Assembly (NCBI GenBank): GCA_963664815.2
Contig: CAXXHB010000003.1
Location: 1,760,001-1,824,000 of the forward strand
Direction of reading: 5' to 3'
Length of the DNA stretch: 64,000 nucleotides
Origin: Spirochaetota bacterium
GTDB taxonomy: Bacteria; Spirochaetota; UBA4802; UBA5550
The notes under the pieces were generated by a model. It worked only from the letters and a program-made list of their open reading frames with translations, was not told where the DNA came from and searched no databases. Made by a program: the position numbers and the translations under genes. Below are positions 41,492-64,000 of this stretch, one piece after another; position 1 is the first letter of the stretch; each line of letters opens with the position of its first letter.

Positions 41492-42031
41492 ATGGCAAAA
41501 GCAAAACTTCATCCGTTTTTAAGGACTATGCATGGCGGTTTTGACGGTCTTGTACTTTACCGCCGCTATGGCAAAACCTACATTAAAATACGAACAATCC
41601 CCTTTAATCCACGAACAGAACCTCAGGTGAAATGCAGGGGTAATTTCGGCGGCAGCGTAAAGGCATGGCAGAACCTTTCTGAAGAGGAGAAGTCACTCTA
41701 CAGAAACAGGGCAAAGAGAAAAAAAAGGTCGGGGTACAACCTGTTTATGTCGGAATACCTTCGCGGGATTGTTCCCGGTTCACCGGTATCGCCGTCGGGT
41801 AGCGGCGTAACAGGGGAAGCAGTTGTTGTTTCAACTCCCTGTGAAGTAGCGGATTGTACCTGCTGTTATTCTGAAAACAGCAGATCAGGGTCTGTTCAGA
41901 ATAAAATGAATACTGTAAAAGACGGGGTTACATCACTCCGGACGGGACTTAAACAGTATGATGACCCTGTTGAAAAACGTTTCAATACCGTTTCAACTCC
42001 GTTACCGACAGAGAAAAACGCGCGTTTATAG
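41492..42031 (+). CDS. Basic hypothetical protein, possible DNA-binding (HMG-box-like segments)
   Basis: GAGGAG RBS; NPRT..Q...R..F, WQNLSEEEKSLY and SGYNLFMSE. Confidence 0.65.
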   Translation: MAKAKLHPFLRTMHGGFDGLVLYRRYGKTYIKIRTIPFNPRTEPQVKCRGNFGGSVKAWQNLSEEEKSLYRNRAKRKKRSGYNLFMSEYLRGIVPGSPVSPSGSGVTGEAVVVSTPCEVADCTCCYSENSRSGSVQNKMNTVKDGVTSLRTGLKQYDDPVEKRFNTVSTPLPTEKNARL

Positions 42032-42158: not shown

Positions 42159-42700
42159 CGCCCCTATCCGCCCGATGGGCACCTTTCCCCATGGATGGGG
42201 AAAGGAGTGTAGGGAATGTTTACTGTAACCTCTCCCCCCATTTGTGGGGGGAGATGGCCGGCGGCCAGAGGGGGAGTGGCGGTTAATTGTGGCTGCTCTC
42301 CTGTACGGGAGTTTTCACGTGGTGTTATCCAGGTATTAACAAACAGGTGAAATCATCAATATAGCAGGTTACGCCCCTTCCCGCCCGATGGGCACCTTTC
42401 CCCAGGATGGGGCAAGGTGTGTAAGAAATGTTTACTGTTATTTCTCCACCCATTTATGGGGGGAGATGGCCGGCGGCCAGAGGGGGCGGTACGGTTCATT
42501 GTGGCTGCTCTCCTGTACGGGAGTTTTCACATGGTGTTATCCAGGTATGAACAAACAGGTGAAATCATCAATATAGCAGGTTACGCCCCTATCCGCCCGA
42601 TGGGCACCTTTCCCCATGGATGGGGCAAGGTGTGTAGGGAATGTTTACTGTTATTTCTCCACCCATTTAGGGGGGAGATGGCCGGCGGCCAGAAGGGGCG
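42159..42700. repeat. Tandem array of about 212-bp units (about 2.5 copies), each with an inverted pair of REP-like hairpins
   Basis: Units start at 42159, 42372 and 42584 with CGCCCCT(A/T)(T/C)CCGCCCGATGGGCACCTTTCCCC; each also has GGGGGGAGATGGCCGGCGGCCAGA. Confidence 0.92.
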
Positions 42701-43248: not shown

Positions 43249-43434
43249 GGTTTATCAACAGATAGTTATACAGCAGATTATCCATGTTTCATTGAAAAAT
43301 AGATAATTATTAATGAATCTGGCAAAATAACGCTTTTCCCTTGACTTTATTGATTTTGTTATTAGAATATTGATACTTTTGAATATAAAATAAAAAGTCA
43401 TACAGGATGAGATAAGGATTGTGCATGGGCGTGA

Positions 43435-43602
43435 ATGCCCTCATCCCCCTGGCCCCCTTCTCCCATTTTGACGAATTGAAGAGGGCGAAGTGGTGAATAA
43501 TACGAAACCTGATGTTTAGCAGTAATAGTTCAGGATAAAGAACCCTCTCCCTCTTCTGAGCTTCAAATGGGAGAGGGTGGCCAGTAGGCCGGGTGAGGGC
43601 AT
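43435..43602. repeat. Inverted pair of REP-like palindromic elements
   Basis: ATGCCCTCA...CCCCTTCTCCC and CCCTCTCCC...GGGAGAGGG...GGGTGAGGGCAT. Confidence 0.75.
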
Positions 43603-43657
43603 GTTGATTACAGGCTTGAATACATTTATAAGAAATCATCAATAAACAGGTCAGTAT

Positions 43658-43999
43658 ATGAGTTATATTAAAAGAGCTATAAGTATACGCCAGCCATTTG
43701 TTGAAGCGATTCTTGATGGTAAAAAGACCATTGAGTACAGGTCAAGAAAAACCAATATCAGGGAACGTGTTTATATCTATGCCAGCCTTGGTAAAAGGGA
43801 CAAAGACGATTTTGATGAATATGGTTATGATCCGGATAAATGTCCGCGCGGTGCAATTGTAGGTTCAGTTGAGATTATTGATTGTACAGGCAGGGATGGT
43901 GATTACCAGATTCATTTAGCTAATCCGCAGAGGCTGGATACTTTTTTAAAGCCGGTTAATCAACCGCAGCCTATGTTCTGGATACCGCAGTTTGAGTGA
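43658..43999 (+). CDS. ASCH domain protein
   Basis: AISIRQP, GKKTIEYR, IYAS and GAIVGSV. Confidence 0.92.
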   Translation: MSYIKRAISIRQPFVEAILDGKKTIEYRSRKTNIRERVYIYASLGKRDKDDFDEYGYDPDKCPRGAIVGSVEIIDCTGRDGDYQIHLANPQRLDTFLKPVNQPQPMFWIPQFE

Positions 44000-44039
44000 T
44001 GGGTGTGGTGGCGCAGGAGTTATAACATAGACATTGAGC

Positions 44040-44234
44040 CGGGCATCTCGGTACACCGCCTTGTTGCAATTCATGAAACTAGGTGTGGTTCAAGCGGCAC
44101 TCGATGACCGGACTTGTAGTGAGAAGTACAGGTGTTGCATTTACTGGTTTTGATTAAGGCGGTCATCGAGTGACAGCGCGATTAAGTGAGGGCTATTGCT
44201 GTGAGTTTATTGCGCTGTTGTATCGAGATGCCCG
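44040..44234. repeat. Inverted pair of palindromic repeats of a different family
   Basis: CGGGCATCTCGGTACA/TGTATCGAGATGCCCG outer arms; CACTCGATGACCG/CGGTCATCGAGTG inner arms. Confidence 0.8.
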
Positions 44235-44292
44235 TATGTAGATGATGATATTGTTGTAAAGTGATGTTGTTGATTATAGGTAATTTTACTGC

Positions 44293-44500
44293 GCAAAACG
44301 TTCAGATCCAGGTTCATATGTGAAATGCGCGTAAGAAGACGATAGGCAAAATGTCGCAAGCTCCATTTTGCCTATCGGAGGCGCGGGTTTCCCCGCGATA
44401 GTCTTCGGTGGCTTGCGCCACCTTCGCCTATCTGCGGGTAAACGAAATGCTTCCGTGCTTTGCACGTCGCACGATCGTTTAACCAGCGCCTTCGTTATGT
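44293..44500 (+). other. attC-like recombination site 1
   Basis: GCAAAAC ... GTTATGT ends; several internal hairpins such as GATAGGCAAAATG/CATTTTGCCTATC. Confidence 0.6.
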
Positions 44501-45706
44501 GTAATGCCCGTTTGAATGCCGGAGACATCGGTAACACAAAATTATTAACTATAAGAGGTATTATGAAACAAGTTGAAGAAATAAAAAATAGAATTGAGAC
44601 AGGCAATTCACTGTTGTTTTGTGGTGCAGGATTTTCAACAGGATGTAAAAACTTACTTAATTCATACCCTCTTGAAGCTAAAGAGTTATCCAAAAAAATA
44701 TGTGAATTAGGGCAATTCGATCAAGACGAAGATTTAATGTATTCATCAGATTACTTAATAAATAAAATTCCAAATAAAATCAATGATCTAATACAAATGT
44801 TAAAAAATCATTATACAATCAAAGAGGTTTCTGAAGGAGTTAAGGTAATATGTAGCTATAATTGGAGAAGGATATATACAACAAATTATGACAATTCAAT
44901 ATGTTTTTCTTTTAATCAACAAAACAAATATATAGATTGCTTAACTTTAGAAGATAATCCTCAAGAATTTTATAAGAATCATAATAATGTAATTCAAATA
45001 AATGGAAATATAACAAAATTAAATAAAGAAACTTTAAATAATAGCTTTAAGCTTACTCGATCATCATATGTTTCAACAAGCAGTTTTGAAAACTCAAATT
45101 GGTATTATCCATTTAAAAAAGATTTAGAAATTTGTAACGCTATTATCTTCATTGGTTATTCATTATATGACATAGAAATCGAAAAAATATTGTTTAATGG
45201 AAATTATAAAGAAAAAACATTTTTTATAACACATCCGGATATTTCGAGTAAAGCTAAGTATACATTAGAAAAATATGGAATAGTATTAACATCAGGCTTA
45301 GAGTTATTTGCAAATGAACTTAATTATTTCGATCCCTCATGTATTAATACTAATTTCCATTCTTTGCTTTGTCTAGATTTATATAAATCGCAAAACATTA
45401 ATAAGCCAATTGATGATTTGCAGATAAATAATTTTTTTCTGCATGGCGATTTAGAAACAAGCTATATTGATCATTTCATAACTGGTAATCCTGAAGCTCC
45501 CTATTTAATTATGAGAGATAAAGTAAATGAAATTTGTTCATCCTTAAAAAATAATCAAAGTATTGTTATATATTCTGATTTTGGAAATGGTAAAAGTCTT
45601 ATCCAGGATTTGATAAAATCAATTTTAACAATAGAAGGTCTTGATCTTCCCCTGATATAGTGGACATTAAGTTAAGCCGAAAATATAATAAATTTGGAGG
45701 CTTACA

Positions 45707-45997
45707 ATGTCAGAGAGAAGTAAATACAGCCCGGAATTTAAGAAAGAGGCTGTAGAATTATTAAGAACCAGCGGAAAGACATCACTTGAAATAGCGAATG
45801 ATCTTGGGATTAAAAGAGATAATCTATTGCGCTGGAATAGGGAAATTGAAACAGAGGAAAGGAATTCCGGGACAATAACAATAAATCCTCAGGATAGTGA
45901 AGAAATTAAACGACTCAAGAAGGAAATGTTGATTCTTAAGCAGGAGCGTGACATTCTAAAAAAGGCTCTGGGCATATTCTCGAAACCACAAGAATGA
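45707..45997 (+). CDS. IS3 transposase OrfA
   Basis: YSPEFKKEAV HTH; LKQERDILKKA; A6G slippery site at 45958-45964. Confidence 0.93.
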   Translation: MSERSKYSPEFKKEAVELLRTSGKTSLEIANDLGIKRDNLLRWNREIETEERNSGTITINPQDSEEIKRLKKEMLILKQERDILKKALGIFSKPQE

Positions 45998-46863
45998 AAT
46001 ATGAATTCATCAAGGAACAGAGTACTGAATTTCCAGTATCGAGGATATGCCAGATTATGGATGTGAGTAAAAGCGGTTATTATGCCTGGCTGAAAGCTCC
46101 AAAGAGTATAAGAGGGCTTGAAAATGAAATACTATTGGAGAGGATAAAATCATCACATGAATCAAGCGGAGAGAGCTATGGCAGCCCCAGAATTCATCAG
46201 GATTTACTTGAAGAAGGTATTTTCTGCGGAATACATAGGGTTGAGAGGCTGATGAATGTGAATGGGATTCATGCAAAGACAAAGAAAAAATTTAAGGCAA
46301 CCACTGATTCGGGTCATTCTTTGCCAGTGTCTGAGAATATACTAGACAGGAATTTTACTGTTGAAGAGAAAGATAAAGTATATGTGTCAGATATAACCTA
46401 TATCTGGACATTAGAAGGCTGGCTGTATTTATGTATAGTAATGGATTTATTTTCCAGAATGATAGTCGGATGGTCAATGGCAAATCATATGAGAGCTGAA
46501 CTTGTTGAAGATGCTTTTAACATGGCCTGTATGAGAAGAAATCCGGGCCCTGGCCTGATATTCCATTCTGATAGAGGTAAACAATATGCCAGCAAATCCT
46601 TCAGGGAATTACTTGAATCAAAGAAATGTATTCAGAGTATGAGCAGGAATGGCAATTGCTGGGATAATGCCTGTGCTGAATCTTTATTTCATTCGATGAA
46701 AACAGAAGAATTTTATTTTAATATTTACAAAACAAGGAATGAGGCTAAGAGAAGTATCTTTAGATATATTGAAATATTTTATAACCGTAAAAGAAGGCAT
46801 TCACATCTGGGTTATAAAAGTCCGGAGATTTTTGAAAGATTAAATCTTAAAATAATGGCTTAA
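45994..46863 (+). CDS. IS3 transposase OrfB (DDE)
   Basis: YGSPRI, SDITYI, HSDRGKQY, GNCWDNA.AES and YNRKRRHS. Confidence 0.95.
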   Translation: MKYEFIKEQSTEFPVSRICQIMDVSKSGYYAWLKAPKSIRGLENEILLERIKSSHESSGESYGSPRIHQDLLEEGIFCGIHRVERLMNVNGIHAKTKKKFKATTDSGHSLPVSENILDRNFTVEEKDKVYVSDITYIWTLEGWLYLCIVMDLFSRMIVGWSMANHMRAELVEDAFNMACMRRNPGPGLIFHSDRGKQYASKSFRELLESKKCIQSMSRNGNCWDNACAESLFHSMKTEEFYFNIYKTRNEAKRSIFRYIEIFYNRKRRHSHLGYKSPEIFERLNLKIMA

Positions 46864-48259
46864 CAAAGTGTCCATTTTTTCGGGGGAACATCATCTAAAT
46901 GTTTATTCAGTTAACTTGGATGATATAAAATGTTTTGAAAAAGATTTTGAAAGTATATTAGATAATACAAAACAATCTATTATTTGTATTGATGGATATT
47001 CAAAATATTTAGATATATTAGATTATATTTCGAAAGTTAAATCAGATAAAATTACTTTGTGTTTGACTGAAAGAACAAATAATCATCAACATTTCAGAAA
47101 TGAACTATCAGAAAAAATTGAATTTTATGAATATAATACTGATATATTAGTTAAAGATTCTGAAATCAGAAGATTAATTGAAATTATTGACAATTTGGGT
47201 TATTGGAAAGAAAAGATAAATTGGGGTATTGAAAGAAAGAAAAATTATATTCTTAATGATTGCAAAGGACAAATTTCAAATGTATTGCTTGACGTTTTTA
47301 ACTCGCCACAAATGCTCAACAAAACAAGAGAAATTTTAGAAGAGTTATTAAATCAAGATAGTTTTAAAAAAACAGTATTTGCTATTTGCTTGGTTGAAAT
47401 ACTTGGCTATCAATGTACAGATAGTTTAATATCTTCTATTGCAGGTAATAGCGAAATTTATAATCCGAATCTTACAAATTCACAAGCTTTTCGTGAAATA
47501 TTCCACTCGCATAAAGGTAAGTTATATACAAAGTCATCTCTATTCTCTTTGTTTCTTCTAAATAATATTTTTTCATCATCATATATCGTTGAGCAGCTTC
47601 TTGAAGTAGTTAGTCGGTATAACGTACAACGTTCAGATAGTTCAGAATCGAAGTTTATTTTTAAAGAACTTATTAGATTTTCATTTGTTCAAAGAATACT
47701 ACCGGAAAAAAATAAGAAGTCGGGTTTAGTTTCTTTTTATCAAAATTTAAAAGTAAAAGTAGAATGGTTAGCAAGAGATCCTCATTTTTGGCTGCAATAC
47801 GGAATGTCTGAATTAATGTTTAATAATTTTAAAAAAGCTCAAGAATATTTGGATAATGCATATGAGCTAATTAGAAACAGAAATGACAATTATACATATG
47901 ATTCTTCATATATAGATACTCAGCAGGCAAAGCTATATTTACTAAAAAGTCTTGAAGATCAAAATGGTGAAATAATTTTTGAATATTTCCAGAAAGCTCA
48001 TTCGCTTCTTGCACATTTGCAAAATGATCAATATAAATTTCGACAACTGCTTAATTATGTTGAAGTATATAAAACCAAATTCAACTTGTTATCAAAAACA
48101 CGAAAGAAAGATTTTATTCTTGCATGTAAGTATATTGTAGATCAAATTGAAAATCAAAATCCACATTCTATAGTGACTAATGACTATATTAAGATAAAAT
48201 GTTTATCTGAAATTAAAAAAATTATCATTCAGTCAGGAATATAATACGATTAAATCAAT

Positions 48260-48372
48260 GGGCACTACACATAATAACAAAGCTCATGCGCTTCACTTCC
48301 TGGCGGTCGTTCGAGCTACGCGAAATCGTGGCGAAAAGACTACCGTGATTTCGCATCAATAAGACATTGTGC
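48260..48372 (+). other. attC-like recombination site 2 (degenerate)
   Basis: GGGCACTACACATAA(TAA)C complements GTTATGTGTAATGCCC at 44494; internal GCGAAATC/GATTTCGC hairpin; ends ATTGTGC. Confidence 0.6.
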
Positions 48373-48462
48373 AAATGTGCCGAGCATATTTTTTTCATGG
48401 GCGCTCGTCCTGTCTGCCCATTTGTGACGTAATATAATAGATTTCAAATTAGATAAATAACT

Positions 48463-50487
48463 ATGAAAAATTTAGAAAATAATAATCCAAACAAGCACAT
48501 AGAAGATTATCTCAATTTTTATTTCAAACTTTCTAAGCCTGACTTTGCTGTACTATTAACTGGTGAGTGGGGAAGTGGAAAAACTTGGTTTATAAACGAG
48601 GTAACAAAAAATTATTCAGCCACCCAAGGAAAAGAAAAAAATGATCTATTTCTTTTTATTAGTCTTTATGGGATGACTGATATATCTGAAATAGATCAAC
48701 AAATATTTGAAAAACTTCACCCTGTTATTAGTTCAAAACCTGTAAAATATTTAGGAAACATTATTAATGGTGCCCTTAAAATGGGTTTTAAATTAAATTT
48801 AGATTTAAACAAAGATGATAACGAAGAAAGTGAAATAGGCATAAATTCTGAGAGTTTAAGTTCAGTATTTAATTTATTTACAATAAAAACAGATAAGATA
48901 ATAATAATTGATGACATTGAACGATGCTTTATAAAACCTCAAAGACTTTTTGGATATATTAATACTTTCGTTGAACACCAAAGAGCTAATGTTGTTTTAA
49001 TATCTCATGAAGAAGAATTATTTGAAAAGAAAGATGAGAAAAATAATAAATTAGAAAACTCAAAACGATTTAAGGAAAAAACTATTGGTGCCACATTTAA
49101 AGTTGAATCTTGTGTAAATGAAGCTTTTAATTCATTTATTGACTTAATTGAAAGCAAAGAAAAAGATGTTCTAAATATACATAGTGACTTAATTCTTAAT
49201 GTCTATAACAGGCTTGACTATCATAATCTTCGTAATTTAAAACAAGCAATTCAAAACTTCCCATTCTTTTATAAACAATTTCCTGAAGGACTTCTTGATT
49301 ATAAATTGGAAAATTCATTGAGATATTTTATGAATGAAGAAAATAAGCATTATAGCTATATGGAAAGTACAATAGAAATGTATTTTTATCTTAAATTAGA
49401 AGGAAGCCAAGGATTAATAAATAATGAGAATTGGATAGAAGCAAAACAAATATTCAACAAGACTTATAATAATTACACAAAGCATCAACAAATTAAATCT
49501 AAAAATACAAACGATGACAATGATATACTGTTCCGTTCTATAATCAAACATGATCTTTTGGGGCTATACTGGTATAATGCAGTTATAGAAAATAAGAACT
49601 ACAGAGAAATTTTGGATGAAAAATTTTCAGAAATTAAAAAAGTTGATTCCGAAAAAGAACGCCCACTTTGGAAAATGCTTAATAATATTATAACTATGTC
49701 TGAAGAGGAAGTGAAAAGCAATTATGAAAATTTAAAACGTGATTTTGAAGAATTAAAATATACTCATCCAGGCGAAATCCTTCATATAGCAGGTTTATTT
49801 ATATTGATGTCAAATCATGGTATCATACCTTTGAAAAGTGACGAAATAAAATCTCTGGTTCTTGAAATAATACATTTATTAACACAGAAAAGTATTATTA
49901 AACATTATCAAAATTTTTATGGTCTTCGTGATTCATATGGCAGTTATATATTTTCAGCTAAAGATGATCCTGTTTTTAAAGAAATTTATGAATTAAATGA
50001 AGCAAACAATAAAATAGTAAGTGAGAATAGTAAAATTTTAAGTTTAAAAAAAGACTTAGAGCAGTTACCTAAGAATTTTACAGAGTTTTGCAATGAATTA
50101 AGATATATAAATTATAATGGTAAGTATTCTGATTTTTCAGCACTTACTTATATAGAGAATACTGACGATTTTTTTACTTTTTTAACTGATGTTCAATCTT
50201 TTAACCTATCGACTTTTCTAAGTTTTCTTATGGAACGCTACGAAATCAAATATGGAAATGGTATAATCCGCCCAATTTTCAAAGATGAATATATATTTCT
50301 TGTGAAGCTTAAGGAATTCATTGAGTCAAAAATATTATTAAAAAACCGGCTATATAATATTTCATCATTTAAGTTTGCTCAAGATATAGAAAATTTAAAT
50401 TTAATCATTACACGATTTCAAGAAACATTTATAGAATTAACAGATAATTATGAAGAAAAAGAAAAAGAATATTTTAATAAACGGTAA
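48463..50487 (+). CDS. KAP-family P-loop NTPase
   Basis: LLTGEWGSGKTW, IIIDDIERC, FKEKTIG and NLRNL. Confidence 0.88.
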   Translation: MKNLENNNPNKHIEDYLNFYFKLSKPDFAVLLTGEWGSGKTWFINEVTKNYSATQGKEKNDLFLFISLYGMTDISEIDQQIFEKLHPVISSKPVKYLGNIINGALKMGFKLNLDLNKDDNEESEIGINSESLSSVFNLFTIKTDKIIIIDDIERCFIKPQRLFGYINTFVEHQRANVVLISHEEELFEKKDEKNNKLENSKRFKEKTIGATFKVESCVNEAFNSFIDLIESKEKDVLNIHSDLILNVYNRLDYHNLRNLKQAIQNFPFFYKQFPEGLLDYKLENSLRYFMNEENKHYSYMESTIEMYFYLKLEGSQGLINNENWIEAKQIFNKTYNNYTKHQQIKSKNTNDDNDILFRSIIKHDLLGLYWYNAVIENKNYREILDEKFSEIKKVDSEKERPLWKMLNNIITMSEEEVKSNYENLKRDFEELKYTHPGEILHIAGLFILMSNHGIIPLKSDEIKSLVLEIIHLLTQKSIIKHYQNFYGLRDSYGSYIFSAKDDPVFKEIYELNEANNKIVSENSKILSLKKDLEQLPKNFTEFCNELRYINYNGKYSDFSALTYIENTDDFFTFLTDVQSFNLSTFLSFLMERYEIKYGNGIIRPIFKDEYIFLVKLKEFIESKILLKNRLYNISSFKFAQDIENLNLIITRFQETFIELTDNYEEKEKEYFNKR

Positions 50488-50537
50488 AAAAAATTCATGT
50501 ATTTTACCGAATTAATGTGATATGGCGCACTACAATC

Positions 50538-50632
50538 GTACAACAAAGCTTATGCGCTTCACTCGCTTTGCTTGTACGGGCTAAGTCGTTTTCGATTTTG
50601 CGACCAAACGATACATAAGCAAAACATTAAAA
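50538..50632 (+). other. attC-like recombination site 3 (degenerate)
   Basis: GTACAAC; AACAAAGCTTATGCGCTTCACT nearly identical to site 2; GCTTATG/CATAAGC arms. Confidence 0.5.
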
Positions 50633-50686
50633 AAATGGCAATAATACCTAGACTGAACATCTGCCGAATAGAAGGATAAAAAAATA

Positions 50687-51211
50687 ATGCAGGGAATAGT
50701 ATTCAATGTAATAACAATTATTGTAGCAATTGCTGCGTTGATTATAAGCTTCATTTCTTTATATTATAGCATAAAAGTAGCCAGAGATGAAAGAGATTTC
50801 GAAACAAAGCTCGGCATAGTCAAAGAACTACAAAAAGCAAAGCTTGCTATCATGCAAATATATTCAAGTGATGGGGAACAAACTATCAATTTAAATCGAA
50901 AATATAAGGTACCTGAGTCGCTTGATATTACAACAACTTGGTGGGATGAAAAATCTAATAACCTTTTAGAATGGAATATGTTTACAATCTATGAACTTAA
51001 TGCTGCATATGAATCAATAAGGATGATAAAAAATAAAAAAGGGCAAAGTATAACTGGAACTGATCTGAAAAAAATAAACGATAATCTGGATTTAGTTTTT
51101 AAATATAATAGTAATTGGCTTATGTTTGGAGATGACCCCCAAAGCTATGACATATTCGTGAAGAATATTCAAAAAGGTCTCAAAGCATCAATGATAAAAA
51201 AACATATCTGA
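50687..51211 (+). CDS. Hypothetical single-TM protein
   Basis: N-terminal TM helix; AAGGA RBS. Confidence 0.7.
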   Translation: MQGIVFNVITIIVAIAALIISFISLYYSIKVARDERDFETKLGIVKELQKAKLAIMQIYSSDGEQTINLNRKYKVPESLDITTTWWDEKSNNLLEWNMFTIYELNAAYESIRMIKNKKGQSITGTDLKKINDNLDLVFKYNSNWLMFGDDPQSYDIFVKNIQKGLKASMIKKHI

Positions 51212-51270
51212 ATATGAGATAATCTAAGAGGGATTATATAATAAATGACAATTATATATAGAGACCCCCA

Positions 51271-52764
51271 ATGTCCCTAATCCAATGCCCTGAATGCAAC
51301 AGCAGAATATCCGACAAAGCCGAGGCATGTCCTCATTGCGGTTTGCCTTCTACTTATTTCAAATCTATGCAGTCAAACGCCAGTTATGTTGCAGATTCAA
51401 ATATCTTCCCTGCTGTTAACATTTCAGATATAAAAGAAATCCTTCCCGGATTTATAAAAGATTATAAAAAAGTTTTCATTAAAGATAAATATATCACATC
51501 TCAGGAACAGAAGTTTCTCCTGGCCAGGTATGGCCAATGTTCAGATATTATTCCTGAAGCTGATCTATTTAAACTTATAGAAGATTTAACCACCGATCTT
51601 AAAATTGATATTGAAGATGTTAACAAATACCTCGATTGTCTGCTTAACCTAAAAGATTCAATCAGCAACCATAATGACAGATTCCTTGATTCAAAGCTTG
51701 TGGAACACAAAGATTATTTTGATACTATCCTTGCCCCCATTGATAAAACAATAACGCTTGATGACGAGCAGAGACGGGCGATCCTTATTGATGAATCTCA
51801 TTGTCTTATCATTGCCGGTGCTGGTGCCGGTAAAACCACCACAATGGCTGCAAAGGTTAAATACCTTATTGATAAGCAGAGGATCGATCCAAAGGATATA
51901 TTTGTCATATCATATACCAATAAAGCAATAGATGAACTGAAATACAGGATCAACAGACGTCTTAATCTTCCTGTTAAAATATCTACTTTTCACGCTTTCG
52001 GTTTTGAGATAATACGGGATGTAAAGCCTGTAATCCCGCAGGTCTCTTTCCAGGCATATGATATTATATATGATTATATTTATAAAAAGGTCTTTGATAA
52101 TAAAAGACTGCTTAAAAACCTGCTGCTTTTTTTAGGCTATTATTTTGATATCCCCCATGAAATGATGCAGTTCTCATCCCTGAAAGAGTATGCTATATAC
52201 AAGGGAAACCTTGATTATGAAACAATAAAAAGCAGGCTTGGCGAATATGTCTATGAAACAGCAAGTTCAAGGTCAGGGAAGAAGCGTACTATAACTGGAG
52301 AGTTTTTGAGATCAATCCAGGAAGTTCAAATAGCGAACTTCCTATACATGCACAGCATCGATTATGAATACGAGAAACCTTATCCCCATTCAATACCTGG
52401 CGCTAAAAAGAGTTATACCCCTGACTTTTACATCTGGCAGGATGATAAACAGGTATACCTTGAGCATTACGGCATATCAGAAAACTACCAGAGCGATATT
52501 TACGATAAACATCAGATAGATAAATATACAAGGGCTATTGTTGACAAAAGGAAACTGCATAGAGAAAACAATACGGTGCTGGTTGAAACATGGAGCAGGT
52601 ACAATGACGAACGTAAGTTACTTGGTCATCTACAGGAGATACTGGAAAATCACGGTTTTATTCTCAAAGAGAGGAACCACGAAGAGGTATACCGTAAACT
52701 GACCGAAACAGCACATGATAAATATGTGTATAGACTGGTAATGTTTATTTGCGTGCAAAATTAA
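51271..52764 (+). pseudogene. Zinc-ribbon plus UvrD/helicase IV-like helicase with PD-(D/E)XK-like insert, 3'-truncated
   Basis: CPEC..CPHC, AGAGAGKT, SYTNKA, STFH, YTPDF and LEHYG; Walker B and later helicase motifs missing. Confidence 0.75.
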
Positions 52765-52928
52765 AAAGCTTCATGTGCAGTTAAGTATAAAATAAAACAA
52801 AAACTTTGTCAATCCTTGATTTAATTTTCTAAAAATCCAATGCAAAACTGAAAATTCATAAAAAAATATTTACTTTTCAGAATGCTCTATATACAAATAA
52901 ACCATATTAAAAAAACGAGGATAAAATA

Positions 52929-53936
52929 ATGAAGCGGTTAACGATCATTACAGGAAATAATGCGTTCGTTAAATTTCTAGTTTTTATTGGCATGTTTTTT
53001 TGTCTTTTATTGTATGGATGTGACAATAGCTCAAGTGATAATACCTTAAGTTCTGGATATTATATTCACGGAGTTGCGGCAAAAGGAGCAGTTCTTCCAA
53101 AGGGAAGTCGGGTTGAATTAAGGTCAGCAGCAGTAGATGGTATACCTTCGGAAATTAAGAAAACTACAGTCAGTGATGACAATGGTAGTTATTCTATTGA
53201 TGTCACTGGTTTAACAAAGCCTTTTCTAATAAGAGTTCTTGATGAAAGTACAGGTACATGGTATTACAGTTATACAGAGAGTAGCCAATCAATTGCTAAT
53301 GTTAATCCCTTAACAGATGCTATAATTAAAAGTTTTTACATAAATTCATCTACAATATCAAACAGCATAGAATCTACATGGAGCACTGGCTATTATAATA
53401 ATACTGTCGATATGAATGGTAACCCCGTCCCTGCTAACACTCCAATTGTGATGCCAGACGTTAATAGTATTTTAAAAATTAAGAACATTTTGATTAATTG
53501 CGTTTCATTATGGTATGGAATAACTGTTACAGATGATTTATTTACTACCAATTGGGTAGTTGGAGAAGGTTATGATGCAATTCTTGATTCAATGGGCATA
53601 AATTCTACTTATGCCACAACAATTACCAACAATGCATCAACTTATCCAAATTATGTTTCTTCTTATTATGTGTATACAACAATTGAAAATTCTAAAATTT
53701 ATCTGAATTGCAAAATTTTAACAACTGGTTCAATTGTTAGAACTATGATCGCGAACAACGAAAGTTTGACATTAATTTCTACAGATAGTAATGGTGTTCA
53801 TACATTCACTGGTAAAATTGATATAACATCTTGGTTAAATGATTCCGGGTTGGCTGTATCGGATTATAATACTACATTTTTCGAAATTGATGGGGTTGCC
53901 ACAACTCCTTACGCATTTGTATTGTTACATAAGTAA
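52929..53936 (+). CDS. Ser/Thr/Asn-rich lipoprotein, prophage moron
   Basis: LLYGC lipobox; GVAAKGA and NVNPLT; opposite strand to the phage genes; own RBS and terminator. Confidence 0.75.
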   Translation: MKRLTIITGNNAFVKFLVFIGMFFCLLLYGCDNSSSDNTLSSGYYIHGVAAKGAVLPKGSRVELRSAAVDGIPSEIKKTTVSDDNGSYSIDVTGLTKPFLIRVLDESTGTWYYSYTESSQSIANVNPLTDAIIKSFYINSSTISNSIESTWSTGYYNNTVDMNGNPVPANTPIVMPDVNSILKIKNILINCVSLWYGITVTDDLFTTNWVVGEGYDAILDSMGINSTYATTITNNASTYPNYVSSYYVYTTIENSKIYLNCKILTTGSIVRTMIANNESLTLISTDSNGVHTFTGKIDITSWLNDSGLAVSDYNTTFFEIDGVATTPYAFVLLHK

Positions 53937-53937
53937 T

Positions 53938-53980
53938 TTAGATTTAAAAGTCCTTCATAACGAAGGACTTTTAAATCTAA
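53938..53980. terminator. 19-bp perfect hairpin between convergent genes
   Basis: TTAGATTTAAAAGTCCTTC-ATAAC-GAAGGACTTTTAAATCTAA. Confidence 0.8.
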
Positions 53981-54030
53981 TGGGTTATAACCGCATACTA
54001 TAGCAAACTATAACTAACGAAAAGTATTGT

Positions 54031-54789
54031 TCAAGAGGCTTTCCTAATAATTAATTCAGAACCAGTAGTCTTTTCTGTACCGACTGAATAATTCAGTTTA
54101 ACAGGCTTAAGCTCGAAATCCTTAAATACTTCTCTCATTTTAGGATGATCATTAAGACTTAGAATGAACGAACCTTTTATAGTTTTCAATACTTCTCCTA
54201 ATTTCACAAAATCCTCATATTCAAAATTGTGTTTATAGCATGGAGCTTCAAAATAAGGAGGATCAAGATAAAAAAACGTTTCAACACGATCATATCTTTT
54301 AATGAAATCCTCCCAAGAGAGATTTTCAATCATTACATCAATCAACCGTAAATGTACTTCTGAAAGTTCTTCTTCAAGGCGTAATAAATTTATCCTTCGT
54401 GGTCGATCAGGACTTACTCCAAAATTTCTTGATGAAACTTTTCCGCCGAAACATAGCCGTTGAAGATAATAATATCTGGCAGCTCGTTGTATATCTGTTA
54501 ATCCGGGGCCTTCCAATTGTTTTTTCCAATCGTTAAATTGTTCGCGAGATTGCAATAACCATTTGAATTGCCTTAAAAACTCTTCTAAATGATTCTGAAG
54601 TACGCGATAAAATGATATCAGGTCACTGTCTAAATCATTGATTATCTCACTTTTTGATGGATCTTTTCTAAAAAACACCCATCCGGCCCCTGCAAAAACT
54701 TCACAATAAATCTTGTGGTCAGGAATCATCCCAATAATCTGTTTTGAAAGGATACTCTTGCCACCTACATAAACAAGCGGACTTTTCAT
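54031..54789 (-). CDS. D12-class N6-adenine DNA methyltransferase (phage Dam-like)
   Basis: YVGGKS, EVFAGAG, INDLD and YLDPPY. Confidence 0.93.
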   Translation of the reverse strand: MKSPLVYVGGKSILSKQIIGMIPDHKIYCEVFAGAGWVFFRKDPSKSEIINDLDSDLISFYRVLQNHLEEFLRQFKWLLQSREQFNDWKKQLEGPGLTDIQRAARYYYLQRLCFGGKVSSRNFGVSPDRPRRINLLRLEEELSEVHLRLIDVMIENLSWEDFIKRYDRVETFFYLDPPYFEAPCYKHNFEYEDFVKLGEVLKTIKGSFILSLNDHPKMREVFKDFELKPVKLNYSVGTEKTTGSELIIRKAS

Positions 54790-54796
54790 ATATTTT

Positions 54797-54909
54797 TACT
54801 CTCCTCTTTAAGTGTAATGTGCCGATTAATACGGAGAGTAGCAGCTTGCTGTGATCCGTGCGTCTACACGGGTCGCCGGGGATCTTCGAAATCCCCGGCT
54901 GCTCACTCT
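54797..54909. ncRNA. Structured multi-stem RNA element in the methylase leader
   Basis: Stems GATCCGTG/CACGGGTC and GCCGGGGAT/ATCCCCGGC closed by AGAGTAGCAGC/GCTGCTCACTCT; GGAGAGTA/TACTCTCC covers the RBS. Confidence 0.6.
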
Positions 54910-54918
54910 ATTATTTTG

Positions 54919-55209
54919 TTACATCACTTGCTGATGTGCTTCCTTTGACATCTGTTCTTTTATTAAATAATGTCTATCCTTGCTGAATTTAAAAATCATA
55001 TTCTCTGTCGGTATTTCAACTCTCGATTCATCAAATAGAATGAACCAACGCCCAGAGTTTTGAGTTCTTGGTGTAAACATTGGCAAATTTGAACCAGGAA
55101 CTGTGCTCATAAATCCTGATGATTCATCGATCATTCCGTCACCTTTAACTTGTTTAAGTTTTCTCCAAAAAATACCATTCGTTTTCTTGTAGTAGACTGT
55201 ATATGTCAT
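54919..55209 (-). CDS. Phage hypothetical protein
   Basis: GGAGG RBS before ATG 55209; lies in the tail operon. Confidence 0.7.
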   Translation of the reverse strand: MTYTVYYKKTNGIFWRKLKQVKGDGMIDESSGFMSTVPGSNLPMFTPRTQNSGRWFILFDESRVEIPTENMIFKFSKDRHYLIKEQMSKEAHQQVM

Positions 55210-55210
55210 T

Positions 55211-55501
55211 TTACACCTCCGATGTATTTGCAAATTCTGGACGCTGCATTATTTGCTGATAGCAGATTGCAAGTATATTAACATCTGTTTTAAGTGCAGG
55301 TTCAAATATTGTATCATAGTCACTTATTTTATTCATTGAATCATTCTTTACAGTAAATCTGATATCTCGTGCAAGTATCTCTGATTTATCTGAATCTTTA
55401 TAAACGGTTAAATAATAATCGACTGTTTTTGTATCCTTCATAACATCTACCCTCTCAATACGGGTGTAGGAATCAGCAGTAATATATCCCTTAATTGCCA
55501 T
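55211..55501 (-). CDS. Phage protein, possible tail fibre chaperone
   Basis: Directly follows the fibre gene; AGGAG RBS. Confidence 0.6.
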   Translation of the reverse strand: MAIKGYITADSYTRIERVDVMKDTKTVDYYLTVYKDSDKSEILARDIRFTVKNDSMNKISDYDTIFEPALKTDVNILAICYQQIMQRPEFANTSEV

Positions 55502-55513
55502 AGATTATCTCCT

Positions 55514-56950
55514 TTATTTAATTCTCATTATATATGCAGCTGTTAGGTATTTTGGAAGAATAGAAAAAGCATTTCCAGTTCCTGATGTGATGGTAGTTCC
55601 ACTAAAACTATGTGTATGTCTGGCAGACGCACCGCCAGTAGAATACATATCTGAATATCCCTGAGTTCGGTATGGATAGCCGCTGCCCGCAGTTCCATCT
55701 GTCTCATTTGTTCCAAAACTATGTGCATGGTCTGGGCTATCTGCACCAGTAGTTCCACTAAAACTGTGTGTGTGAGCTGGTAATTCTGCAATTGTCAAAG
55801 TAACAGTATTACTTCCGCCTATAACACCGATGCCAGCGAGAGGACTTCCCATTATAAATCTTGAATCTGTTAAATTGGGAAGATATCTGCCTGAGCCATT
55901 GAAAAGTGGACTTTCAATATCATAACACAATGAGCCATTACACACTTTCCAATTATTTGGAATGGATAATGATATTGCAGTAAAACCTGCATTTGATCCA
56001 TTGGTGAAATATCCTGGTATGTAAGCAGCTATTGTGGCAATGGGAGTAATATCTGAGGAACAGTAACCATTCAGTTTTTTAGCATCATCAGATATTGTAT
56101 CCTCTACCGCATACTTCCCTCTGTTACCATAAACTTTATAAATTGAAACAACAGAAGAAGCTGATGGAATTTCAATGCTTACTGTTAGTTCTGTAGGATT
56201 ACTATTCAATAATGCAGATAATTCGATAGTTTCTACTGCACCAGTTCCAGTGAGTGTTTTTGAAGTAACATTTACTCCATCAGTCAATTTCAGAATAACT
56301 CCTGCAGGGCCTTTTACCAGAAATTTTAAAGTAAAATCAGATCCAGAAAGATATTTAGCCCAGTTAAAAAATCCGCTCAGTGTCTGTTTGAAAATACGGT
56401 TTGATGTACCATCTGAACTGCTTTGTATTTTGCAGCACAAATTGGTTGTATCATATCCGATTTTGCCGTCCGAGCCTCCATCTGTATATGCCCATTCATC
56501 AGGTATACCATAATCATACCAATTAGTAATTCCTGTTTTACTGCTGTAATATTTGAATTCACCATTTGAAACTAGATTCCTTTGTGATGCAGCATATATC
56601 CTGTTAAGTAAATTAGTTGATAGCGCAGCATCATCTCCCAAGGCGGTTGCTATTTCATTTAATGTATTTAATGCTGATGGAGCTCCTCCTATCAATGCAG
56701 ATATAACATTATCGATATATGTTTTAGCTGCTTTTTGACTGGCAATCTTCAAATCTGAATTTGATGATAAAGCTCCATCAGTATCAATAGAGGCGCCACC
56801 AAGTTTATCTATTTCAGTTTTAAGATAATTATCATTACTGTAAAGTCTGACAAACTCGCTATTAAAAGTTGATCCCCTGGCCAAGGTACCTGTTGAGGTA
56901 TCTCTGCCATCCTTATATTCTGTAATTTGATTCCCGTTAAATTCTCCCAT
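55514..56950 (-). CDS. Phage tail fibre protein with collar-like domain
   Basis: APSALNTLNEIATALGDD, WKVCNG, LPNL..RF and HTHSFSGTT repeats. Confidence 0.85.
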   Translation of the reverse strand: MGEFNGNQITEYKDGRDTSTGTLARGSTFNSEFVRLYSNDNYLKTEIDKLGGASIDTDGALSSNSDLKIASQKAAKTYIDNVISALIGGAPSALNTLNEIATALGDDAALSTNLLNRIYAASQRNLVSNGEFKYYSSKTGITNWYDYGIPDEWAYTDGGSDGKIGYDTTNLCCKIQSSSDGTSNRIFKQTLSGFFNWAKYLSGSDFTLKFLVKGPAGVILKLTDGVNVTSKTLTGTGAVETIELSALLNSNPTELTVSIEIPSASSVVSIYKVYGNRGKYAVEDTISDDAKKLNGYCSSDITPIATIAAYIPGYFTNGSNAGFTAISLSIPNNWKVCNGSLCYDIESPLFNGSGRYLPNLTDSRFIMGSPLAGIGVIGGSNTVTLTIAELPAHTHSFSGTTGADSPDHAHSFGTNETDGTAGSGYPYRTQGYSDMYSTGGASARHTHSFSGTTITSGTGNAFSILPKYLTAAYIMRIK

Positions 56951-56956
56951 ATATTT

Positions 56957-57583
56957 TTATTCCTCCGTTCTGATCCTGAATTTTATTCCTCCTCCTTTGC
57001 AGGAGTTTATGATCTCTGAAATGAAAGTTAAAGTTGTGTTTGAAAGTGTATTTGAAAATACTACTTCAAAAAAACGCGGCTGGCATATATCTCCGGCAAG
57101 ATAAAAACTGCCATTCAGATATTCCTCACCGTTTAAATAAACTGAATCCGGATTGTTGATATCACCGGAAATGTATCCTGATCCATCAAGATATACACTC
57201 CCATCCAGCCAAAATGCATCTTCAAGTTCTGGCTCATTCATGTCTCGAGTATATTGGAATTCATCCTCAGCGAGTAGCCGGCATATCTCATTCAGATCAG
57301 GTATTGATCCGCTGCATTGATATTTACGTATTGCGACAAACAGATACAGTATATATTTGTCATCACCCCATCCCTGACGTTTCTGTCTGAGTATCTTGCC
57401 GATCATATCAAGAACAGCACCTGAGTTGCTTTTTATATCACTCATAAGTTTGAGCTTTGCAAAAACTTCATCAAGTTCATCCATGAAATATGAAAACAGT
57501 TTCCAGAATTTATAGTTATTTGAACTTGAACCAATTGCGAATATCGAATCTGGTAATTTTTCTATGAGGTCAATATTACTCAT
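56957..57583 (-). CDS. Baseplate wedge protein (gpI/DUF2612-like)
   Basis: GAVLDMIGKIL and LDGS..LDGS repeats; follows baseplate J. Confidence 0.7.
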   Translation of the reverse strand: MSNIDLIEKLPDSIFAIGSSSNNYKFWKLFSYFMDELDEVFAKLKLMSDIKSNSGAVLDMIGKILRQKRQGWGDDKYILYLFVAIRKYQCSGSIPDLNEICRLLAEDEFQYTRDMNEPELEDAFWLDGSVYLDGSGYISGDINNPDSVYLNGEEYLNGSFYLAGDICQPRFFEVVFSNTLSNTTLTFISEIINSCKGGGIKFRIRTEE

Positions 57584-58733
57584 ATACAATAACCACCTTG
57601 TCAGATGTAGTTTTAAGTATCTGCCTGACACCTGGTGCAATTTTATCTGAGGAAGCTGTTGAAGCAGAAAGCCCTAAATATGCCTTAACGTTTTCAAGTC
57701 CTTCTATATCTTGAAGTAAACTGCAGAGTTTCCATCCGTAAGCTGTACCGGCAATTATAAGATTATTGATATATTTAACCGCATCAGATTTGATATTGCT
57801 TTCATAGGTATTGTCAAATTTAGAATTTACTGAAAGCACATACTTGATATAAACCTGGGCTTCTTCCGGGCGTGAAAACTTTATAGTATGATTTTTGCCC
57901 TGGGAATCAGCTACTGTTTTTGAAACATTTCCATATGTATTAATCCCTGCAGATTTCTGTGTCATTATTGTTTCTGCAATTGTATCTTCATCTCCTCCGG
58001 ATACTATTAACTCTATAGCACCTGCAGGGAGCCCGTTTGCATCGGTATAATTTTCAACATTTTCATAACCAATGGCTTCAGAGACTTCAGATATATTAAG
58101 TATTTCAGCCCGGATAGCTTCGAGCGCAGATCCCGAAGCAAGTTGTGTGGAGTCATATCTGTCTTTAAGTTCATAGTCAGTTTCTACAACCCGGCCGCCT
58201 GTGAATGCCGATGGATTTGTTACAGAACTTATTCCTGATACTGGTGTTTTAATTTTTATAATGCTGCCGGCAGGAACATTTCCGGATGTTCCTTCTACAG
58301 TACATACTGCAGCAATAGTTACATTTCCCTCACTGTCTGTAGTCCCGATAACTGTAGTCTGAAAGATAATACCTTGTTCTGTCTCGGCCTGGGTTCCTAT
58401 GGAGACCGGTGAATATGGATCTCCTGTAAATTTTAGATATCCACCAGCTGCCTGTTCATCTTTTCTTGTGACCAAGCCAAGCTTTGTCAGTCTGTTTAAT
58501 GGAACGCCCTCTGCAACATCGATGTCAAATGAATAATAAACATCCTCAGCAAGCTGCCACTGATTACTCAATGCCCAGGCCATGAGTTTTACCTCTGCAC
58601 CTATAGGACTTTCATCTGAAAGATCAATCGACTCTCCAAAATATTCTGCAGACTGTGCCTTTGCCTGCACTTCAGACAGAAGTGTATCATATGTTTTGCG
58701 GACAAATCCCGCTGCTGTTACTCCATAGCTCAT
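57576..58733 (-). CDS. Baseplate J/gp47 family protein
   Basis: YGVTAAGF, AEGVPL, GNVPAG, GGRVVETD.EL and AGINTYG. Confidence 0.92.
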   Translation of the reverse strand: MSYGVTAAGFVRKTYDTLLSEVQAKAQSAEYFGESIDLSDESPIGAEVKLMAWALSNQWQLAEDVYYSFDIDVAEGVPLNRLTKLGLVTRKDEQAAGGYLKFTGDPYSPVSIGTQAETEQGIIFQTTVIGTTDSEGNVTIAAVCTVEGTSGNVPAGSIIKIKTPVSGISSVTNPSAFTGGRVVETDYELKDRYDSTQLASGSALEAIRAEILNISEVSEAIGYENVENYTDANGLPAGAIELIVSGGDEDTIAETIMTQKSAGINTYGNVSKTVADSQGKNHTIKFSRPEEAQVYIKYVLSVNSKFDNTYESNIKSDAVKYINNLIIAGTAYGWKLCSLLQDIEGLENVKAYLGLSASTASSDKIAPGVRQILKTTSDKVVIVYE

Positions 58734-59077
58734 ACCGTTCCAGATACCTCCCCATAAATTGAATCAACCTTAAAATCAACTGTCATGGTTCTTTCCGATC
58801 GATCTGCAGTTATTTTTATACTCTCAACTGCTTTCACTTCTGAATCACTCTGAAGAATGTTCAAAATTCTGGAATATATTGCTCTTTTCGAAACTGACTT
58901 ATATTGTAATATCTCCATCCATTCTATACCTTTGTCAGTATCAAGAAACCATGAACCTTTATCCAGACGAATCGCATTCTGAAGCCTCTGTGCAAGACAA
59001 TTCCCATCAGACACCATTACAGCACTGCCCGAGGTTATTATCCTGTCACCATTTGCATCGAGTTTAAAAGTCATCAT
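58730..59077 (-). CDS. Baseplate wedge/sheath initiator (gp46/W-like)
   Basis: KGSWFLDTDKGI and DSIYG. Confidence 0.75.
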   Translation of the reverse strand: MMTFKLDANGDRIITSGSAVMVSDGNCLAQRLQNAIRLDKGSWFLDTDKGIEWMEILQYKSVSKRAIYSRILNILQSDSEVKAVESIKITADRSERTMTVDFKVDSIYGEVSGTV

Positions 59078-59778
59078 GATATTTTGACCTTCTCAGCTTT
59101 GATGGATGAGAGCTGTGTCTGGAGATTTGCAGCAGCAGTTTTAATTGCTGTCAGAGCTGTAGCATTTTCATCAACTGCACCAGGTATGATAGATGATAAT
59201 GCTGCGCAAAAGGTGTTTAGTATAGTCACAAGAGTATTTCCGAGCACTGCAGGCTCAGTTGCATTTAATATTTCAAACATACCATCCCAGGATATCTTTG
59301 TCCCTTTACCAATTATATCAGCTTCAGTGATCTGGAGAGTTAAACCACTATCTTTGTGACCTATAAGTAGCCCTGCATCATTGAATGAATCAGGTGCAGT
59401 CCAGTTTTCTGATGCAATACCATGTGATACACTTGCGTTTTCCCGTGAAAAAATACTGCTCGATGTATTGTCATAACCTTTACTTAATGCATTTTCTATA
59501 CTGAAAGTTGAATATGAAATCCACACCAAATCACCTTTAACATAATTTGGTCTGATGTAAAATCCTCCGGAAAAAAGAAATTGAACCGGGATATCTCCTA
59601 CAACTGCAAATTTTGTGGATGTAGATGCACCAGTAACAGTATATTCAAGTAGAGGTTGTATATCGGCTCTCATCTTTACTTTATCAAATGATTCAATCTT
59701 ACCGATGCATCCGACAATTATATCACGGCTTCTTTTATCCCAAAAACGGTTAAAGAGGTCTATTATTCTCCTGCTCAT
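59074..59778 (-). CDS. Baseplate spike (Gp138-like N-terminal OB domain)
   Basis: GKIESFD, DIQPL, DIPVQF and KGDLV; position in the module. Confidence 0.75.
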   Translation of the reverse strand: MSRRIIDLFNRFWDKRSRDIIVGCIGKIESFDKVKMRADIQPLLEYTVTGASTSTKFAVVGDIPVQFLFSGGFYIRPNYVKGDLVWISYSTFSIENALSKGYDNTSSSIFSRENASVSHGIASENWTAPDSFNDAGLLIGHKDSGLTLQITEADIIGKGTKISWDGMFEILNATEPAVLGNTLVTILNTFCAALSSIIPGAVDENATALTAIKTAAANLQTQLSSIKAEKVKIS

Positions 59779-60569
59779 ATTTTAACCGCCTCAAACTCTG
59801 TACCTGCTTGATTTTTTGATGAAAATTTATGCTTTCCTGAAACTGCCTTGAAAAGCCCCTGAACTTCGTCTCCGTCAACTTCCACAAGACTCCCGGCTCC
59901 AATCTTATACATGAACAATGTTTGAATGCTGTAACCTTTGTCTGTTTTCCTGGCTGATAAAAGACCAGTTCCGGGAGATAAATAAAACGCAGATACAGTG
60001 GAAGAGGATTTTTCTTTAAGAAAATATGCCTGACCATTTTTGAAAAAGAAATCAGACTTAGTGTCATGTTCAAGCTTCTTCATTGCTGTCCGCAGCGGGA
60101 CTCCGGAAAATGAAATACCCCTGCTGTATATTTTTTCTACTTCGAGATCAATTTTAGCTGCTGTTATCCCTACCAGACTTAAACACTGTTTAATTACATC
60201 CCGGGAAGATACTGAACCTTTCCATGACTTATTGATCATAGCTGATGTCCATAAAGATGTTTTATCGGAGATTGTCAGTGAAAGGGTTTTATCAATTCCT
60301 TTGGCAACTTCAAATTTAATTACCTCTCCGGTTACACATGTACCAAAATCCGATTCATAACCTGCATCAATGACTATAGGTGGATAAACGCCTTTTTTCT
60401 TTTCGCAGGCTGCAATAGTTTCGCCTGATGGATTGTATATCACAGCTTTTGTCTGGTTTGAAGATTTTACTGAAAAATCCGTTTCAAATTCCAGTGTAAA
60501 GGGAGGCCCAGTGAGCACCCTCCCGTTAATATCAAATTCGCAATATCTTTTATATAAAGCGTCAGTCAT
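59775..60569 (-). CDS. Baseplate hub protein
   Basis: IYNPS, DAGY and LSPGTGLL; position in the module. Confidence 0.7.
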   Translation of the reverse strand: MTDALYKRYCEFDINGRVLTGPPFTLEFETDFSVKSSNQTKAVIYNPSGETIAACEKKKGVYPPIVIDAGYESDFGTCVTGEVIKFEVAKGIDKTLSLTISDKTSLWTSAMINKSWKGSVSSRDVIKQCLSLVGITAAKIDLEVEKIYSRGISFSGVPLRTAMKKLEHDTKSDFFFKNGQAYFLKEKSSSTVSAFYLSPGTGLLSARKTDKGYSIQTLFMYKIGAGSLVEVDGDEVQGLFKAVSGKHKFSSKNQAGTEFEAVKI

Positions 60570-60895
60570 ATTATACAGATCCTCATTGTATCGAAGTTTT
60601 CAATACTGATCCTCTCAATTGCCGGGATCTCACGCAATGCATCGGAAAGGTTTAATGTTATTATCTTCTTCCTGAGGCTTAAACCAGGGACTACTTCCTG
60701 CAGGGAATTACCAAGATATGCGAGTTTTGAAGAATAAAGAGGAGTTTCATTTTCGTCGAGAATTACAAAGGTATAAAAATCACCAATGCTGTTATAATCG
60801 AAGTTAAATATATAGTTCTCCCCATCAATTTCAAACACCTTCTGAACCGGGAGTTCATCATGTTTTAGCTGGATATATTCAAGATCAATTTGCAT
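60566..60895 (-). CDS. Small baseplate protein
   Basis: Position between the tube-initiator-like gene and the hub. Confidence 0.6.
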   Translation of the reverse strand: MQIDLEYIQLKHDELPVQKVFEIDGENYIFNFDYNSIGDFYTFVILDENETPLYSSKLAYLGNSLQEVVPGLSLRKKIITLNLSDALREIPAIERISIENFDTMRICII

Positions 60896-60897
60896 AA

Positions 60898-63994: not shown

Positions 63995-64000
63995 ACCTCT

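Follow-up and report, generated by a model that had tools for sequence, protein, structure and literature searches.

The window analysed here, a stretch of 64,000 nt from contig CAXXHB010000003.1 of a Spirochaetota bacterium (assembly GCA_963664815.2), carries a short array of gene cassettes, all of its parts on the + strand. With a probability of about 0.7 it represents a satellite array, now in decay, of an integron-like but non-canonical system, the tyrosine recombinase of which lacks the I2 insertion of the integron integrases (IntI). The array is best filed as a real, decayed remnant that is integron-like, departs from canonical integrons in two defining features and constitutes a new variant related to the rAID arrays. 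The first-pass annotation, made from the sequence alone, had proposed an integrase-less array of attC-like cassettes with anti-phage-type genes in a spirochaete, and to that extent it was right. No recombinase or remnant of one was found in the window, either with 15 recombinases as queries (best E 0.012) or with Pfam over 67 open reading frames (ORFs), and the sites thus lie without an integrase nearby, as in a CALIN (cluster of attC sites lacking integron integrases). The cargo is of defence type, with a match to PADLOC PDC-S49 and matches to the PDB entry 9JAP, the spirochaetal setting is probable, 18 of 23 loci with related sites being labelled Spirochaetota-type, and the five motifs pointed out are present, at 44494, 48260, 48366, 50538 and 48276/50542. 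What does not hold is the assignment to the canonical CALINs, since the sites lack the extrahelical base of the L box and the recombinases of related arrays lack I2.

Recombination sites

Site 2 (48276..48368, +) and site 3 (50542..50628, +) of the window have a motif in common, and a scan of GTDB with this motif gave 34 loci, from which 8 chance matches and 3 overlapping duplicates were dropped, leaving true sites in 23 loci of 18 assemblies. A covariance model built from 25 family sites was run over 42 sources and has 74 matches in 22 of them; the 8 chance loci, the 7 loci of Bacteroidota/Acinetobacter and the 4 canonical integron loci gave none. Sites 2 and 3 (E 1e-14 and 4e-11, respectively) are its sole matches in the window, with nothing else below E 0.5 in the 64 kb. 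An intact site consists of AAC, 3 nt, a 9-bp stem, a variable branched middle, the stem partner, 5 nt and GTT. In the stem 96% of the cells are paired, against 24–35% in slid controls, and there are 18 compensatory cells, a number reached in none of 500 shuffles; five of the nine pairs change on both sides, with compensatory counts that are inflated by kinship among the sites. Pairing is found only at offset 2, without a bulge, over 29 distinct end pairs, and where extrahelical bases had been looked for in the folds there is instead an unbroken 9-bp stem, whereas position 9 is unpaired in all nine canonical control sites (0% pairing). The R box is of the AAC...GTT type, and the right end is GTT in 50 of 51 family sites, these being selected by the model. 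Top and bottom strands fold equally well, and blastn of one family site each against phage and plasmid collections gave no match.

Both family sites of the window have ATT at the crossover and are decayed, as had been proposed. Site 2 differs from one intact relative by 14 changes, 10 of them C>T or G>A, and folds no better than shuffles (z 0.1), while site 3 differs from its chosen intact relative at 25 positions and has a minimum-energy structure (z -2.8) that is an alternative one, with the family stem absent. Of the three hairpins described earlier only that of site 1 (44374..44496, +) is strong, with a z of -6.1 on both strands; it is a symmetric, offset-0 branched hairpin with the left end ATC that ends at the crossover GTT at 44494, and it is not matched by the family covariance model. 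The loss of the crossover G at sites 2 and 3, from which fixed cassettes had been suggested, is real but no proof of fixation, because G-to-A is accompanied by many further decay changes and all crossovers (5 of 5) of L038, a rAID-like array, read A|TT.

Cassette ends and cassette contents

Cassette ends were scored by comparing the start of a unit with the reverse complement of its end over 11 scored positions. The cognate ends of 37 intervals between consecutive sites agree on average at 9.05 of 11 positions, against 4.85 for 1240 non-cognate pairs, and the ends constitute inverted repeats of about 20 bp in which a mismatch occupies position 11 in all 46 cases (37/37 intervals and 9/9 first cassettes). 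In canonical cassettes the end match is lost after about 8 bp (11 cases) and the distal arm is absent. A weaker form of the same pattern is seen in 21 Bacteroidota cassettes, with 14% match at position 11 and 62–76% at positions 12–14. In the window, the Avs5-type cassette (44494..48278, +, about 2.53 kb without the insertion sequence (IS) described below) has cognate terminal repeats. When a 3-nt TAA duplication at its right end is skipped the ends agree at 10 of 11 positions, which is reached by only 0.3% of the non-cognate pairs, and the complementarity first noticed around its SIR2 gene is thereby confirmed. The KAP cassette (48366-50544, +, 2.18 kb) does have the bracketing motifs reported for it, but its ends score 6/11, which 33% of the non-cognate pairs reach, so this bracket alone is not above chance.

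The median cassette size in the family is about 0.9 kb, and 6 of 37 cassettes are 2.0–4.8 kb long, including whole restriction systems. The window cassettes, which had been called unusually large, are so in comparison with canonical integrons, where defence cassettes are known and tend to be small according to the accessible part of 10.1101/2024.07.02.601686, but not within the family. The family arrays carry phage-defence, restriction and toxin-antitoxin (TA) genes, ISs are frequent in them, and PADLOC matches were obtained for 25 of 81 array ORFs tested (312 called), a figure that has no background control. For the integrase-less arrays L005 and L007, the same assembly also contains a complete array, L030 and L012, respectively. 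Locus L003 (1-2375), a cyclic contig of 2248 bp binned with a metagenome-assembled genome of Patescibacteria, comprises two cassettes whose ends are cognate and is possibly an excised circle.

ORF-less cassettes recur in L016 (6847-7100, 16144-16400 and 17613-17818) and in L036 (8925-9101 and two more copies), some of them near-identical within one array. Genes for a reverse transcriptase, bAvd and Lcl_C, resembling a diversity-generating retroelement, are found directly downstream of a family site in L015 (6218-8796), and cassettes of spirochaete arrays at L013:5318-6118 and L030:196-1500 encode a transpeptidase/beta-lactamase-like domain and an erythromycin-esterase domain.

Recombinase of the related arrays

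A tyrosine recombinase gene, full or partial, is located 69–141 bp from the first crossover in 8 of the 23 loci, five of the genes being co-oriented with the array and three divergent. PF00589 is present in all the proteins and PF13495 in the seven longer ones, which are matched by TIGR02249 in two pieces with 185–215 bits, the cut-off being 265. The I2 region is represented by 13 profile positions, against 55 residues in 2A3V, and about 40 residues are missing from the seven longer recombinases relative to VchIntIA and three other IntIs; the spacing from K to H is 65–69 in the I2-less enzymes and 106–107 in three IntIs. These roughly 40 residues, the IntI-specific I2, are absent in all recombinases beside related arrays. 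In a tree of 22 rows with two outgroups and a midpoint root, which does not separate an ancestral from a derived state of the I2-less enzymes, the array recombinases group with IntI against XerC/D, with unresolved internal branching, and the same group contains IS91-associated recombinases that have no array. The co-oriented subgroup has an N-terminal domain with a weak, convergent resemblance to HARP/UvsW-N (Pfam below cut-off, Foldseek E 0.18, best Z 5.6), and as the fold search gave no clear match this putative HARP-like domain is a lead only. A word search with the recombinase N-terminus retrieved only the query protein.

Relatives in Bacteroidota and Acinetobacter

Of 6 loci examined that carry homologues of the I2-less recombinase on Bacteroidota plasmids, 5 have the recombinase gene at the head of an array of small genes in one orientation. 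In L038, the rAID-like immunity array of Parabacteroides mentioned above, the recombinase is I2-less and 34–43% identical to the spirochaete ones, and the array has hairpin sites and cognate cores. In the Acinetobacter plasmid NZ_CP045136.1 (L050:2537-4720), tet(X3) is located directly behind a shortened I2-less recombinase and a primary site of hairpin-GTT type, closely similar to the one in L016; the unit ends in an AAC-type site with the position-11 pattern. Judged from these sequence features, tet(X3) has the appearance of a cassette of this class in first position. The Bacteroidota arrays L036 and L041 contain group II intron reverse transcriptases in antisense orientation.

Proposed mechanism and alternative explanations

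In the intact system as proposed, the I2-less, IntI-related tyrosine recombinase adjoins a primary site at which cassettes are inserted at G|TT without target duplication, and the site downstream in each cassette can fold with an R box of 3 bp, an L stem of 9 bp without a break and, between the two, a spacer that is asymmetric (3/5 nt). Excision, we infer, would give a circle in which the cognate ends of the cassette complete a long hairpin; in the array the site would pair with a foreign end and form a weaker hairpin, so that integration might be favoured. Recombination is expected to take place on the folded strand with one strand exchange, the latter being suggested by the variable spacers. 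The mismatch at position 11 may choose the strand and, possibly together with the HARP-like N-terminal domain in one subgroup, might replace the recognition that otherwise depends on the extrahelical base and I2. The window array would have taken up KAP, Avs5-like and ORF-less cassettes and is probably frozen, given the absence of a recombinase from the 64 kb, the decay of sites 2 and 3 and the disruption of the Avs5-like gene by an IS3 element.

The alternative that survives best, although it is unlikely, is that the same parts are used in double-stranded recombination of the Xer/dif type, each site being two inverted simple core sites and the hairpin incidental or formed only as a cruciform. 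The left-end consensus CGCATAA-N6-TTATG (alignment A2) has one exact match in E. coli K-12, beside hipA, with 0 in 200 shuffles; the place is taken to be dif, which the record does not annotate. The recombinase lacks I2, and its score with archaeal XerA is slightly above that with IntI. However, a reaction with two strand exchanges ordinarily requires identical spacers, whereas the spacers around the crossover vary between sites; moreover the L stem covaries over 60–150 nt, and the cassette-specific ends match over 0.2–4.8 kb with their fixed mismatch.

Considerably less probable is an ordinary decayed CALIN of a canonical integron, with IntI elsewhere and the I2-less recombinase as a bystander. 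Such a CALIN would be expected to have AAC...GTT R boxes, co-oriented low-GC genes and TA and defence cargo, all of which are found, and canonical IntIs are known from Spirochaetota in the accessible parts of PMC3607928 and PMC4889954. The family sites, however, are paired where the nine canonical controls are not, the distal arm has no counterpart in canonical cassettes, in 8 loci the I2-less gene lies next to the first crossover, in one of two fixed layouts, and the 23 loci yielded no integrase with I2. That the units are small elements resembling transposons or miniature inverted-repeat transposable elements (MITEs), with 20-bp terminal inverted repeats, moved by a transposase (e.g. of the IS91 or IS110 type) and accumulated at a hotspot, is highly improbable, for although the long terminal repeats, the partnership of related recombinases with IS91 transposases and the frequent ISs would agree with it, the G|TT junctions are without target duplication, the repeats differ per cassette, each unit has a conserved downstream hairpin site and the array-side recombinases are not paired with a transposase.

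The interpretation as a satellite of a system with an I2-less recombinase also has observations weighing against it. No recombinase is present in the fetched DNA of 13 of the 23 loci and only fragments in 2, many of these loci being cut by contig ends or by the 10-kb flank, and the lack of an I2-bearing integrase applies to the 23 loci, the genomes not having been searched for a canonical IntI. I2-less relatives adjoin IS91 transposases without any array, and loss of I2 does therefore not diagnose cassette capture. Nine of the 37 intervals score below 8, probably through missed sites between the ends, the intact sites fold only modestly (z -1.3 to -3.0 in four folds), and both the GTT count and the conservation of the stem are inflated, as the model that picked the sites had been trained on this very family. 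Finally, L003 may be an assembly cycle of a tandem repeat.

A broader proposal, which is tentative and to which we give somewhat less than even chances, is that the arrays make up a second widespread class of integrons in Spirochaetota and Bacteroidota, including rAID, with an integrase that never had I2. Such integrons would capture cassettes via bulge-free hairpins derived from dif-like half-sites, with the role of the extrahelical base and I2 taken over by the fixed mismatch at the cassette ends and, in some lineages, by a HARP-like domain that binds junctions. Standing between Xer/dif and IntI/attC as a surviving intermediate, they would escape current integron finders, could bank defence systems of 2–5 kb and would have been the route by which tet(X3) was first captured. 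An I2-less recombinase together with sites that lack the base bound by I2 would make the origin of integron recombination testable by standard assays, and rAID would gain a concrete site anatomy. The family would also be an unsurveyed bank of defence genes, and the packaging of some Bacteroidota resistance genes may be explained. The window copy is only a remnant, and its value lies in the family exposed by it.

Defence genes and other parts of the window array

The primary, attI-like site is found at 44284..44343 (+), with the probable crossover after G44341. Positions 44326-44347 show 20/22 identity to the first site of L005, in which the first cassette has cognate ends; the complete element L030 of the same assembly is on another contig. 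The hairpin of the window site is weak (z -0.2), as in the sites adjoining co-oriented recombinases. It is followed by the body of an ORF-less mini-cassette (44341..44376, +) of 36 bp, with a perfect 13-bp terminal inverted repeat and the ends GAT/ATC instead of GTT/AAC. The same architecture, a short perfect inverted repeat and a symmetric site, is present in three copies in the Chryseobacterium locus L036, with no sequence similarity to the window unit.

The Avs5-type cassette encodes a SIR2-STAND protein (44563..48244, +) of 808 codons when the IS is left out. The two halves of the now interrupted gene both match 9JAP (E 1e-64 and 4e-62, residues 44-414 and 426-831 of 9JAP), which is EfAvs5 according to the accessible part of PMC11897194, and the homologue P0001 (806 aa) covers both with 72–74% identity. 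The IS-free frame has the Avs5 layout of SIR2, STAND NTPase and C-terminal sensor in one protein of about 800 aa; the window copy differs from Avs5 in being broken by the IS and in having Gln at the position where 113 of 117 motif-bearing homologues have His. The IS, which the first-pass annotation did not include, is a 1252-bp element of the IS3 family (45642..46893, +) with orfA at 45707-45997, orfB at 45994-46863 and a TCT target duplication (NF033516, E 1e-105), and it splits the SIR2 gene. The other cassette gene encodes a KAP-family P-loop NTPase (48463..50487, +; PF07693) matching PDC-S49 with E 1e-108. It belongs to the same cargo family as PDC-S49, a system that is itself only a candidate, and is probably the only intact defence candidate of the window array. 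The GC content of the SIR2-STAND and KAP genes is 0.25–0.26, against 0.38 for bases 1-44000.

Downstream of site 3 there is an ORF of 174 aa (50687..51211, +; GC 0.30) that matches only unnamed Atlas clusters and belongs to no family in Pfam, PADLOC or NCBIfam. No cognate closing end for this unit was found in 50700-64000, the best scoring 8/11 deep inside the prophage, and the ORF is possibly the remains of a last cassette.

Genes surrounding the array

The window starts with housekeeping genes to about 41 kb, followed by genes for GNAT and ASCH proteins, the array, a helicase fragment and phage tail genes as identified with Pfam. The GNAT and ASCH genes had been thought to be possible older cassettes, but they have no flanking sites, and their GC contents (0.45 and 0.40) are host-like and above the 0.25 of the cassette genes; as cassettes they were rejected, with no family half-site at a weight-matrix score of at least 9 and no match to the covariance model. 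About three copies of a 212-bp GC-rich palindromic repeat are found at 42159-42700, upstream of the GNAT gene, and long GC-rich stem-loops at 43420-43605 and 44040-44235 flank ASCH; the latter resemble repetitive extragenic palindromic elements or MITEs and are unrelated to the cassette sites. An ORF of 179 aa at 41492-42031 is 45% identical to a homologue located some 1 kb upstream of the L020 array. On the other side, the helicase IV-like gene (uvrD, 51271-52764) matches only the first 493 of about 947 homologue residues, the remainder not being in the window, and its truncation ahead of the phage tail genes suggests that a prophage has inserted near 52750. Rfam at the gathering threshold and ARAGORN gave no matches in the window, promoter and terminator signals in 43900-44600 are at chance level, and among the 34 GTDB loci there is no syntenic relative of the window, homologues being found only for MsrAB, an IS3 and one small ORF.

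Comparison with known systems

With canonical integrons and CALINs, as described in the accessible parts of PMC4889954, PMC7790495 and PMC8618304, the family has in common the AAC/GTT R boxes, a hairpin site 3' of each gene and a primary site beside the recombinase. ORF-less and TA cassettes, defence cargo, the domains PF00589 and PF13495 and the grouping with IntI against XerC/D are further common traits. It differs from them in being without the I2 insertion and the L-box extrahelical base, in its 3/5-nt spacer, and in a cassette-end complementarity of about 20 bp with a fixed mismatch, compared with about 8 bp in canonical integrons. According to the consulted sections of PMC7790495, I2 is needed for cassette capture and evolutionary intermediates are lacking. 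Integron-like recombinases without the full insertion were described by Smyshlyaev 2021 (PMC8138268), where the insertion is called essential for integron function and where, in the part available, no cassette arrays are assigned to the insertion-less members. PMC4889954 dismisses I2-less recombinases near attC in the text available, and its element tables (supplement files 11 and 12, among the 11 of 16 files covered) have no rows for Leptospira*, Flavobacter* or Bacteroides. This class is not described in the available parts of PMC2426708, PMC8618304, 10.1101/2022.02.06.479319, PMC3607928 and PMC11523902. No description of the site anatomy or of such Spirochaetota arrays was found in the literature covered, which leaves out most subscription journals and the bioRxiv supplements, including the rAID motif figure.

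Among known systems the nearest is rAID of the Bacteroidales (Ross et al., 10.1101/471110; PMC12247911), which in the accessible parts of these sources has an XerD-like recombinase upstream of co-oriented low-GC genes with repeated, integron-like intergenic motifs. The window has co-oriented genes of low GC with conserved intergenic motifs at sites 2 and 3 as well, but in place of orphan immunity genes of the type VI secretion system in Bacteroidales it carries SIR2-STAND and KAP genes, with a site family that is mostly from Spirochaetota. rAID is defined by its immunity cargo and a recombinase at least 44% identical to a B. fragilis protein, whereas the identity of 34–43% given here refers to the L038 protein only. 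The accessible parts of 10.1101/471110 and PMC12247911 give no site structure, primary site or cassette-end rule for the rAID motif. Compared with rAID, the spirochaete-type family is distinguished by its phage-defence, restriction and TA cargo of up to 4.8 kb, by the G|TT crossover and by the distal arm.

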